The notes under the pieces are model-generated. The model did no database searches, was not told the origin of the DNA, and saw only the letters and a program-made list of their open reading frames with translations. Below, in pieces: positions 48,396 through 50,579 of a DNA stretch of 64,000 nucleotides (within the stretch, counting starts at the first letter, position 1; each line of letters opens with the position of its first letter). Origin of the DNA: an uncultured delta proteobacterium (GTDB lineage: Bacteria; Desulfobacterota; Desulfobacteria; Desulfobacterales; B30-G6); NCBI GenBank assembly GCA_963823335.1, contig CAWGLD010000001.1, forward strand, positions 1,184,001-1,248,000, in the 5' to 3' direction. Position numbers and translations under genes: made by a program.

Positions 48396-49502
48396 ATGGT
48401 CGACGTATATTTCAGACATACCCAATATGATGATTCCGGTCTGAAGCAGGTTGTTTTCGACATGATGCGGGCCATGGGAGGCGACGCAGTTTCCGCCGGA
48501 ACAAAGGTCATCATCAAACCGAACTTTCTGCTGGCGGCAGACCCGGAAAAGGGAGTTACCACCCACCCCAGGATCGTACGATATGTGGCTGAATTCATCC
48601 TTGATAAAGGATGCAGCCCCATCATTTCAGACAGCCCGCCCATTGGTTCATTCGAAAAGATTCTGTCAAAAGGGGGCTATGTCGAGGCACTTTCAGGCCT
48701 GGATGTGGTGTTTCGGCCTTTCAGGGAACCCGCTAAAATTGATATCGGAGAGCCCTTTGGCGTTGTCGAGATTGCCAGAGACGCGCTTGAAGCTGACGTG
48801 GTAATCAATCTGGCAAAGCTCAAAACCCATGCGAAGATGCTGCTGACCCTCGGTGTGAAGAACATGTTTGGCTGCGTGATCGGTCTCAAGAAACCTGAAT
48901 GGCATTTTCGGGCGGGTACGGACAGGGAAGTGTTTGCACGATTGCTGGTGCAGATATACAAGGCTGTCAGTCCGGCCATGACAATCATCGATGGTGTCCT
49001 GGCCCTCGAGGGGCAGGGACCGGGAAGAAGCGGCACGCCCAGGGAGCTGAACCTGCTTGCAGGAAGTCAAGACGCCATTGCGGCGGACATGGCCATCTGC
49101 AGTGTTCTGGGCCTGGAACCCCAGAAGCTGTTGACTAACCGGGCGGCCGGTCAGTTGCAGCTGGTGCCGGAAGATATCCATGTACATGGTGAATACAATA
49201 TCCTGAGTGACTTCAAATTTCCGGAAATAGATTCCATGGCTATCGGACCTGATATTCTGCAAGGATTTATGCGCAAATATGTCCTTCAGAAGCCGGTGTC
49301 AGACAATCAGAAATGCAAACTGTGCGGTGAGTGCTGGCGTTGTTGCCCGGTCAATGCCATCAATCGTCGTGTCAAGGGTGTCCGATTCACGTACAATACC
49401 TGTATCCGCTGTTATTGCTGTCTGGAAATATGCCCTTATGGCGCCATCACCAGCAAGAAACCGCTGCTGGGAAGACTCTTTCGGAAGCACGATACACATT
49501 AA
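48396..49502 (+). CDS. DUF362 protein with C-terminal 2x[4Fe-4S] domain
   Basis: VIIKPN, TTHP, KLKTH, GVKNMFG; CKLCGECWRCCP and CIRCYCCLEICP. Confidence 0.9.
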   Translation: MVDVYFRHTQYDDSGLKQVVFDMMRAMGGDAVSAGTKVIIKPNFLLAADPEKGVTTHPRIVRYVAEFILDKGCSPIISDSPPIGSFEKILSKGGYVEALSGLDVVFRPFREPAKIDIGEPFGVVEIARDALEADVVINLAKLKTHAKMLLTLGVKNMFGCVIGLKKPEWHFRAGTDREVFARLLVQIYKAVSPAMTIIDGVLALEGQGPGRSGTPRELNLLAGSQDAIAADMAICSVLGLEPQKLLTNRAAGQLQLVPEDIHVHGEYNILSDFKFPEIDSMAIGPDILQGFMRKYVLQKPVSDNQKCKLCGECWRCCPVNAINRRVKGVRFTYNTCIRCYCCLEICPYGAITSKKPLLGRLFRKHDTH

Positions 49503-49629: not shown

Positions 49630-49730
49630 AGTGTTGGCATGACACAATGTGGTATGTTTGGAAAATTTCCCAGTGATCTGCAAAGTTAGCGAGCGCTGTT
49701 GCGATTCAATTGTTAAGGGTGAGGAATGAT

Positions 49731-50144
49731 ATGTCAAAGTTAAAGGGAGTCACAATATTTTTGCTTGTTGTTTTTATTTTGAATACCGTTCCTATTGTGT
49801 CTATTTCCGCACCGAATGCGATTGAATGGCAATCATACACCACCGGAATGGACTTGGCTAAAAAAAATAGCAAGTCGGTCTTTCTTCATTTTTATGCAAC
49901 ATGGTGCAGTTATTGTACAAAAATGGAAAAAGAATCGTTTCAAGATGATTCTATCGCCGAATACCTGAATGACAATTTTGTTTCGATAAGAGTAGATGTG
50001 GATAAAGAACAGAATATCGCTGACATGTACAATGTGTTTGGTTTGCCCACCACATATTTTTTTTCCTCGAGTGGCGAAAATCTTGGATCGGTTCCAGGAT
50101 ATATTTCAAAAGATCGTCTGATGACAATGCTGAAGGAGATATAG
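49731..50144 (+). CDS. exported thioredoxin-fold protein (SoxW-like)
   Basis: N-terminal hydrophobic segment, FYATWCSYC, VFGLPT, PGY. Confidence 0.85.
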   Translation: MSKLKGVTIFLLVVFILNTVPIVSISAPNAIEWQSYTTGMDLAKKNSKSVFLHFYATWCSYCTKMEKESFQDDSIAEYLNDNFVSIRVDVDKEQNIADMYNVFGLPTTYFFSSSGENLGSVPGYISKDRLMTMLKEI

Positions 50145-50147
50145 ATA

Positions 50148-50579
50148 ATGCGAAGCTCATATTTTAAAACACAAGCGATTCTCGCATCACTGATCTTTGC
50201 TTTCGTCGTATCATTGTCTCTGACTGTAACCGCTGCCGAACTTTCTATGATGTCCGTAAACCAGCTCCAGCGTGTATTGGACAACCCCGAGATAGTTGTA
50301 CTTGATGTTCGTGGCAGTAAAGACTGGACTTCCAGTGACTTTAAAATTAAAGGCGCCGTCAGGAGAGCCCCGATAAGTTTTGAATCCTGGGCCAACGAAT
50401 ATTCCAAGGACAGTGTACTGATCTTATACTGAGCATGATCCCAAGAGCAAACGAGTGTCAGTTTGGCACGAAAGCTTATCTCAAAAGGATTTAACCGGGT
50501 TTACGTCTTGAAGGGTGGATGGGATGCTTGGTCAAGATCTAATTTTCCTGTTGAAGAAAAATCACCTCTTCTAAATTAA
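50148..50579 (+). CDS. exported rhodanese-like selenoprotein with predicted U-x-U motif (TGA 50430-50432 and 50436-50438)
   Basis: VLDVR..IKGA..VLILY-TGA-GCA-TGA-SQEQTS..LISKGFNRVYVLKGGWDAW..FPVE; frame open to TAA 50577-50579. Confidence 0.85.
50455..50469 (+). promoter_or_regulatory. putative bacterial SECIS hairpin
   Basis: GTGTCA-GTT-TGGCAC stem with G-first loop, 16 nt after the second TGA. Confidence 0.6.

Follow-up and report, generated by a model that had tools for sequence, protein, structure and literature searches.

The window, by which we mean the whole stretch of 64,000 nucleotides of DNA that was analysed, carries a short rhodanese gene with two in-frame TGA codons in its active-site region, immediately downstream of a gene for a thioredoxin-like protein. 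The following features were assigned to this locus (positions are those of the window):

49710 to 50144, + strand: thioredoxin-like gene whose product has a hydrophobic N-terminus and carries a WCSYC motif (Pfam Thioredoxin_2, E 2.3e-18; Thioredox_DsbH, E 2.9e-17)
50133 to 50138, + strand: AAGGAG, Shine-Dalgarno-like, 9 nt before the ATG (sequence reading)
50148 to 50579, + strand: predicted selenoprotein gene of the rhodanese family (143 codons and a TAA stop) whose active site reads LY-U-A-U (sequence, Pfam, NCBIfam NF041203, AF2 model; nearest solved folds are rhodaneses)
50148 to 50234, + strand: residues 1-29, probably a signal peptide of the Sec type (MRSSYFK, then a hydrophobic run and TVTA/AE; from the sequence and the lone N-terminal helix of the model)
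50430 to 50432, + strand: first of the two in-frame TGAs (codon 95), a site occupied by Cys or TGA throughout the 31 aligned family members (sequence, orthologs, independent contigs)
50436 to 50438, + strand: second in-frame TGA, codon 97, corresponding to the U of LYCAU; TGA in every TGA-bearing ortholog examined (sequence, orthologs, independent contigs)
50455 to 50469, + strand: SECIS-like hairpin GTGTCA-GTT-TGGCAC, with a 6-bp stem and a GUU loop (sequence, register and covariation in orthologs)

By direct reading of the sequence, the rhodanese frame starts with the ATG at 50148, passes through TAC-TGA(50430-50432)-GCA-TGA(50436-50438)-TCC and stays in phase until the TAA at 50577-50579. 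When both TGAs are read through, translation yields 143 residues (...DSVLILY-U-A-U-SQEQTSVSLARKLISKGFNRVYVLKGGWDAW...PVEEKSPLLN); the table-11 ORF of the gene is 94 aa long and ends at ...VLILY. The earlier note had proposed precisely this in-frame continuation of the 94-aa ORF from VLILY to 143 aa, and it is borne out by the sequence and by a Pfam match crossing both TGAs, in which the Rhodanese model (PF00581) aligned with residues 37-130 (E 7.2e-13; 49.3 bits against a gathering threshold of 22.2).

The protein is also a member of the curated NCBIfam family NF041203 ("rhodanese_LYCAU"), which it matched with 165 bits against a cut-off of 115 and over profile positions 6-126 of 126. It shares with this family its length, its hydrophobic N-terminal leader, the C-terminal pattern ...KGGW..W...P.E.K and the register of the hairpin, but departs from it in that the Cys of LYCAU is also a TGA here (LYUAU), so that the family's criterion of a Cys at the third position finds a TGA instead. 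Judged from the sequence, LYUAU is best described as a Cys-to-Sec variant inside the NF041203 family and not as an exclusion from it.

Such a variant is already known. A UxU form of the rhodanese-related sulfurtransferase was reported in 2007 from the metagenome of the Olavius algarvensis symbionts (Zhang & Gladyshev, PMC1976440), which, by title and abstract, is the only one of the papers found on UxU selenocysteine to concern this family. Its passages on the UxU form are silent on the SECIS register, the recurrence and the export of that form, and the relevant passages of later reviews give rhodanese_LYCAU as a CxU form with one Sec (PMC9312934, PMC13188914). Judging by titles, the papers found on bacterial rhodanese selenoproteins and diselenides include no apparent experimental study of this protein. 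In a genome of an Olavius Delta 1 symbiont, we located a rhodanese_LYCAU member with the motif FY-U-T-U-KNERTSAR and a hairpin in the same register. This copy resembles the present protein in family and in the second Sec giving UxU, but is only 36% identical to it and has a separate origin on our tree; its motif resembles the K-N-E-R copies of two related genomes (G042 and G024). The predicted double-Sec rhodanese is thus a mis-annotated member of a known family, and the earlier note, which had presented it as a rare enzyme, overstated its novelty, given the 2007 report and the existing NF041203 model. The note also went too far with the terms exported, diselenide-capable and enzyme.

The sel genes on which a reading of the TGAs as Sec depends are all present in the genome: tRNA-Sec, i.e. 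selC (75.4 bits, anticodon tca), SelA (524.5 bits), SelB (73.4 bits) and SelD (372 bits), the gene of the latter itself holding one in-frame TGA. The genome is moreover rich in selenoproteins, with in-frame TGAs in four of five FlpD/MvhD matches, in a peroxiredoxin-like gene and in four further rhodanese-domain matches including TsoB:

Contig C5, 144246 to 145172, - strand: selD, one in-frame TGA
Contig C1, 1610688 to 1611056, 952159 to 952527 and 1683402 to 1683770, and contig C5, 443626 to 443997: four FlpD/MvhD-type genes, one in-frame TGA each
Contig C1, 1849620 to 1850054: peroxiredoxin-like gene, W-U-PYC, one in-frame TGA
Contig C1, 266929 to 267204 (+), 344094 to 344375 (-) and 344412 to 344660 (-): rhodanese-domain matches, one in-frame TGA each
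Contig C1 outside the window (locus L140, 220 to 1965), - strand: TsoB, 582 aa, FY-U-AGLA-U, UGAs 15 nt apart (NF045694, 949 bits against a cut-off of 805)

Among the three further one-TGA rhodanese matches, one reads VY-U-AVGGRS, with the predicted Sec at the canonical Cys, and the tandem pair reads YCEGYT-U and YCEGPT-U. TsoB (the UxxxxU family with two Sec) is comparable to the present protein in combining a rhodanese domain with two close Sec residues in the same genome. However, the present protein scores only 28.2 bits against the TsoB cut-off of 805 and is not a member of that family, and TsoB is a U-x4-U membrane fusion of 582 aa (rhodanese-DsbD-thioredoxin), as opposed to a soluble single domain of 143 aa.

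That TGA encodes a standard amino acid in this organism, as in a table 4 or 25 type of code, and that both codons are ordinary sense codons is close to inconceivable: some database entries of the family do carry W at probable TGA sites (CAW in P0003, P0004 and P0008; WSW in P0010), but TGA closes 438 of 1231 open frames of at least 400 codons (35.6%) and is therefore an ordinary stop in this genome, the TsoB model comes to its end at a TGA that closes the frame, the Sec machinery is complete, and the in-frame TGAs fall at Cys-aligned redox positions with hairpins after them.

The authenticity of both TGAs was examined using independent assemblies. Three independent DNA studies yielded contigs that span the site and are identical to it at 50430-50438, which supports the TGA at 50430 at the level of contigs, not raw reads. 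A diverged variant contig, with 17 differences over 323 bases, retains both TGAs as well. Over the 41 codons after the motif, dN/dS was 0.11-0.40 in those U-A-U pairs whose dS was not saturated (eight of ten), similar to the values for C-A-U pairs, and the sequence after the first TGA is thus under purifying selection. Together, the independent contigs, the diverged variant and the dN/dS values make it very unlikely that the first TGA stems from faulty sequencing or assembly or from a nonsense mutation, i.e. that the gene is a pseudogene or truly C-A-U. Such an explanation would fit with public gene calls ending at residue 94 (P0002 for this protein; P0009, P0012 and P0013 for relatives) and with the copy of one relative (genome G007), which does look broken past the motif. 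Nevertheless, U-x-U followed by an intact and conserved C-terminal half recurs in five more genomes of our first set, in four loci of a species-representative collection and in the Olavius Delta 1 symbiont.

The copy in G007 (L020:1510-1827, - strand) is a U-A-U gene without any similarity past ...TSVSL, and the 3' arm of its hairpin has been replaced (GTGTCA GTT TAAAAA); it represents either a broken gene or a misassembly. A contig from an RNA library that reaches position 50434 was set aside as evidence of expression, since it is a contig, accounted for a small share of words, and DNA is possible in such libraries.

How the motif varies across the family was examined in two sets of genomes. 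A six-frame search of 61 related genomes (the first set) gave a match in 45, and 31 matched stretches were translated. Six of these read U-A-U (this genome, G002, G007, G008, G009 and, in another family, G016), 16 read C-x-U, and the other nine are more distant rhodaneses without a TGA at the site. Position 95 was Cys or Sec in all 31 aligned sequences, and the orthologs all have a comparable N-terminus in the alignment. The second, independent set, a collection of species-representative genomes, contained at least 539 relatives; among the best 80 of these, 75 loci were CxU, four were UxU and one could not be parsed, and almost all belonged to Thermodesulfobacteriota or "delta proteobacteria". 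Position 97 was a TGA in all 22 TGA-bearing orthologs of the first set and in all 79 parsed loci among the best 80 of the second. U-x-U is a scattered minority of the family, most members of which are C-x-U.

At the protein level, 21 database homologs were fetched from 52 matches. Seven of them carry C-A-C or C-S-C, and seven keep Cys-95 with S, D, G or E at position 97; with the C-x-U orthologs above, the former supply the Cys/Sec exchange at codons 95 and 97 that the earlier note's reading predicted among homologs. Four others have W at an expected TGA (CAW, WSW), and three end at or just after the first TGA position. More generally, the entries P0002, P0009, P0012, P0013 and P0025 end at residue 94 or 95, so that the public gene call for this protein and its U-A-U relatives (the first four of these entries) is a 94-aa stump; Sec is annotated in none of these five, nor in P0003, P0004, P0008 and P0010. 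The WSW of P0010 probably stands for a U-S-U form, to judge from its sequence. The gene is thus chiefly of importance for annotation, since searches at the protein level miss the double-Sec members altogether because of such stumps and of Trp standing in for Sec.

A tree of 101 rows was computed with the motif masked, leaving out the truncated copy of G007 and the unparsed locus (L093). The ten UxU genes on this tree require seven changes, at least four of which are forced by well-supported branches alone; a smaller, more careful tree forces at least two changes. Within the genus of the present organism, G004 and G001 are C-A-U, and this genome, G002, G007, G008 and G009 are U-A-U. This mixture within a genus, together with the repeated switches across the tree, indicates that the Cys/Sec state of residue 95 is evolutionarily labile.

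The hairpin that the earlier note had placed 22 and 16 nt after the two TGAs does lie at 50455-50469 and begins at exactly those distances. When the 76-nt hairpin region was folded alone, its stability was no better than that of shuffled sequences (z = 0.01), and a search of the region against Rfam returned no SECIS match, its sole match being a chance lncRNA (E 0.93). With no folding signal in isolation, the significance of the hairpin rests on comparison. In 21 of 21 aligned orthologous genes it was found in the same register, with 93.7% of the cells paired, compared to 23-55% when the partner was slid; three of the six pairs were changed on both sides, and the covariation score was reached by none of 500 shuffles. 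A G at column 32 of this alignment was invariant. Among the best 80 of the at least 539 species-representative relatives, 78 of the 79 parsed loci keep five or six of the six pairs. Part of this conservation is protein-driven, since the hairpin overlaps the conserved T-S-A/V codons; synonymous changes from AGU..GCA to AGC..GCG argue for pairing of the RNA, but they are few (five cells changed on both sides).

The hairpin register is identical in C-x-U and U-x-U genes, suggesting that the hairpin is placed for the second UGA, at 16 nt, and that the first UGA makes use of it from 22 nt. The hairpins of other selenoprotein genes in the genome (selD, the peroxiredoxin-like gene, FlpD) have a stem of 5-7 bp and a loop beginning with G, as in the rhodanese gene. 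Their spacing is 12-16 nt for selD, the peroxiredoxin-like gene, two FlpD genes and each of the three other one-TGA rhodaneses, and 22 nt for one FlpD gene; a simple hairpin scan of a further FlpD gene (FlpD1, GUHPGECH) found none. The first UGA of TsoB lies 25-30 nt from its candidate hairpins. Because the other selenoprotein genes of this genome hardly reach a spacing as wide as 22 nt, decoding of the first UGA may be inefficient, and a truncated product of 94 aa may exist. That one SECIS serves two nearby UGAs is plausible by analogy with TsoB, which offers a curated precedent.

It might in turn be argued that only UGA-97 is efficiently decoded as Sec, with UGA-95 mostly terminating translation or being read by a near-cognate tRNA (Trp or Cys), so that little or no double-Sec protein is made. 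The 22-nt spacing, outside the 12-16 nt cluster, would agree with this, as would the defined spacer of 11 nt to the minimal stem-loop given for Escherichia coli in PMC8659212. Nevertheless, we consider this explanation unlikely. Purifying selection downstream of the first UGA in several species requires some read-through, the U-x-U variant has at least four separate origins and is kept throughout a genus, and the genome itself provides spacings as long or longer in FlpD (22 nt) and TsoB (25-30 nt). Moreover, the replacement of TGC or TGT by TGA at an otherwise invariant Cys (31 of 31) resembles a Cys-to-Sec exchange, and a Trp in place of that Cys would be hard to tolerate. We therefore infer Sec rather than another residue at UGA-95. 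The earlier note's suggestion that both positions are Sec from one SECIS is likewise supported by the Cys or Sec of the homologs, the Sec machinery, the single conserved, covarying hairpin and the independent assemblies, all the computational checks put forward in the note having turned out in its favour.

Our preferred reading, to which we assign a probability of about 0.8 as a whole, is that the gene encodes an exported LY-U-A-U member of rhodanese_LYCAU, a (seleno)protein family of bacteria of the sulfate-reducer type (Thermodesulfobacteriota), that receives two Sec residues via one hairpin and would act as a redox protein or as a carrier of sulfane sulfur or selenium. The usual Sec-97 would be joined by a second Sec at position 95, where most rhodanese_LYCAU members have Cys. 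SelB and Sec-tRNA(Sec) would recode both UGAs, guided by one short hairpin at the fixed position of the family. The N-terminus, with its basic start, hydrophobic core and TVTA/AE, probably is a signal peptide as predicted from these features, and the protein would then work outside of the cytoplasm. Both selenols would be carried by the three-residue turn that links the central strand to the next helix, and could close an intramolecular diselenide, where the common C-x-U form would instead close a selenenylsulfide. Such ring closure would allow the rhodanese a redox-active or sulfane-sulfur/selenium-carrying role in the periplasm, and a candidate for its reductant in this genus is the thioredoxin-like protein, co-transcribed with it and likewise exported.

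The AF2 model of the protein (pLDDT 90.4) has a strand at residues 90-94 that ends at Y94, a turn at residues 95-97 and a helix at residues 98-112 (pLDDT 96-98), next to a lone N-terminal helix at residues 4-24 of lower confidence. Its nearest solved folds are Alr3790, BH2092 and GlpE, and the top Foldseek matches are all rhodanese domains. The fold is shared with Alr3790 (3ILM/3HIX; Foldseek E 3.5e-8 and TM 0.79 for 3ILM), GlpE (1GMX; rank 24) and Sud (1QXN), which were also matched by profile (3ILM 9.6e-11, 1GMX 1.1e-8, 1QXN 6.9e-7). In contrast to the present protein, these three lack Sec, contain a single Cys and have a longer active-site loop, at 21-27% identity. Sud is a periplasmic carrier of polysulfide sulfur.

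Since the modelled strand ends at Y94, residue 95 would sit at the position of the rhodanese nucleophile and residue 97 at the N-terminus of the helix. The best-scoring ungapped alignment (6MXV) sets residue 97 on the catalytic Cys; an alignment to 6PFZ, the end of the strand in the model and the invariance of position 95 point to residue 95 instead. Owing to this conflict, sequence alignment to solved structures was dropped as a means to assign the catalytic residue, and residue 95 is only somewhat favoured over residue 97 as the canonical nucleophile.

In one relative from another family (G016; L029:358-1935, - strand), the frame of the U-A-U rhodanese continues uninterrupted into a multihaem cytochrome c region of 389 aa that bears eight CxxCH motifs (Pfam Multi-haem_cyto, E 1.5e-13). 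This fusion is a possible clue to an extracytoplasmic redox role.

The turn that bears the motif is shorter than the classical rhodanese cradle, and sulfurtransferase activity is therefore not assured. The protein could be no sulfurtransferase at all, and use its rhodanese scaffold only to act as a thiol/selenol oxidoreductase of the CxC type or to bind metals or metalloids, which we regard as a real possibility even if not the one we would favour. In the model, the motif occupies a three-residue turn between strand and helix without a six-residue cradle, and no Arg or Thr clearly takes the place of the one conserved in classical CX5(R/T) loops. The in-frame fusion to a multihaem cytochrome would fit such a function as well, as would the coupling of a related rhodanese domain to a DsbD-like electron conduit in TsoB. 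On the other hand, the closest solved folds are ordinary rhodanese domains, and non-Sec homologs that keep only Cys-95, with S, D, G or E at position 97, fit a single-nucleophile persulfide carrier better than an obligate dithiol pair.

With regard to the genomic context, the stop codon of the thioredoxin-like gene lies 3 nt before the rhodanese ATG. By NCBIfam, the encoded neighbour is similar to the thioredoxin domain at the C-terminus of TsoB (64.7 bits, well short of the cut-off of 805) and to that of DsbD. Among the 30 loci of the first set, the gene adjoins the rhodanese only in this genome, G004 and G007; the pairing is thus common to only two other genomes and is no feature of the rhodanese_LYCAU family, and the neighbour was rejected as a family-wide partner. 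Just upstream of the thioredoxin-rhodanese pair, positions 48396-49502 (+) of the window encode a DUF362 protein with a C-terminal 4Fe-4S dicluster domain, a gene that was not found beside orthologs in other first-set loci. A terminator scan at the rhodanese locus found none, and promoter-like matches there were uninformative because of the AT-rich spacer.

A different neighbour recurs elsewhere in the family. In 45 of 98 located loci (100 examined; L044-L123 and L011-L030), a co-directional polytopic membrane protein of about 410-450 aa is encoded directly upstream of the rhodanese. It has no Pfam or NCBIfam match; a protein atlas gave an amino-acid-permease-like lead (score 0.98), with AA_permease_2 on 35% of the cluster members. 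A tblastn search of the window's genome with one representative did not find this protein, and it was rejected as context for the present copy.

A more far-reaching proposal is that U-x-U represents a periplasmic vicinal diselenide, functionally distinct from the selenenylsulfide of C-x-U and repeatedly selected as an upgrade of it, and that one minimal 6-bp hairpin routinely suffices for SelB to decode a pair of UGAs spaced by 6 nt. We regard this combination as rather doubtful. If true, the spacing tolerance of SelB (16-22 nt or more) would be much wider than in the E. coli paradigm, and the multihaem cytochrome to which the rhodanese is occasionally fused would hint at a part in the redox chemistry of sulfur or selenium outside the cytoplasm.

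The family provides a clean natural series of C-x-C, C-x-U and U-x-U within a single small, soluble domain, in which one site has switched between Cys and Sec at least four times independently. This series is suited to two questions, namely what benefit a second selenium brings and which distances between UGA and SECIS bacteria can tolerate. Both questions have been asked before, and the variant itself was published in 2007. What is added here is the fixed SECIS register common to one-Sec and two-Sec forms, the at least four switches at residue 95, the systematic truncation in public protein sets, and leads from context (the cytochrome fusion and the permease-like neighbour).

The ortholog of Desulfacinum hydrothermale DSM 13146 (L076:3001-3411, + strand) has a non-TGA stop inside the conserved ...MGF*KVYALKGGW..., which possibly reflects a pseudogene or a sequencing error, in a cultured strain. 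In G001 (L014:1450-1878, + strand), the codon of S139 is a TGA, followed by the conserved PLLN and another TGA (PVEEK-U-PLLN-U); the first of these could be a premature stop behind which the tail has stayed conserved, or yet another recoded codon. A TGA directly after ...E-K closes the frame in many orthologs.
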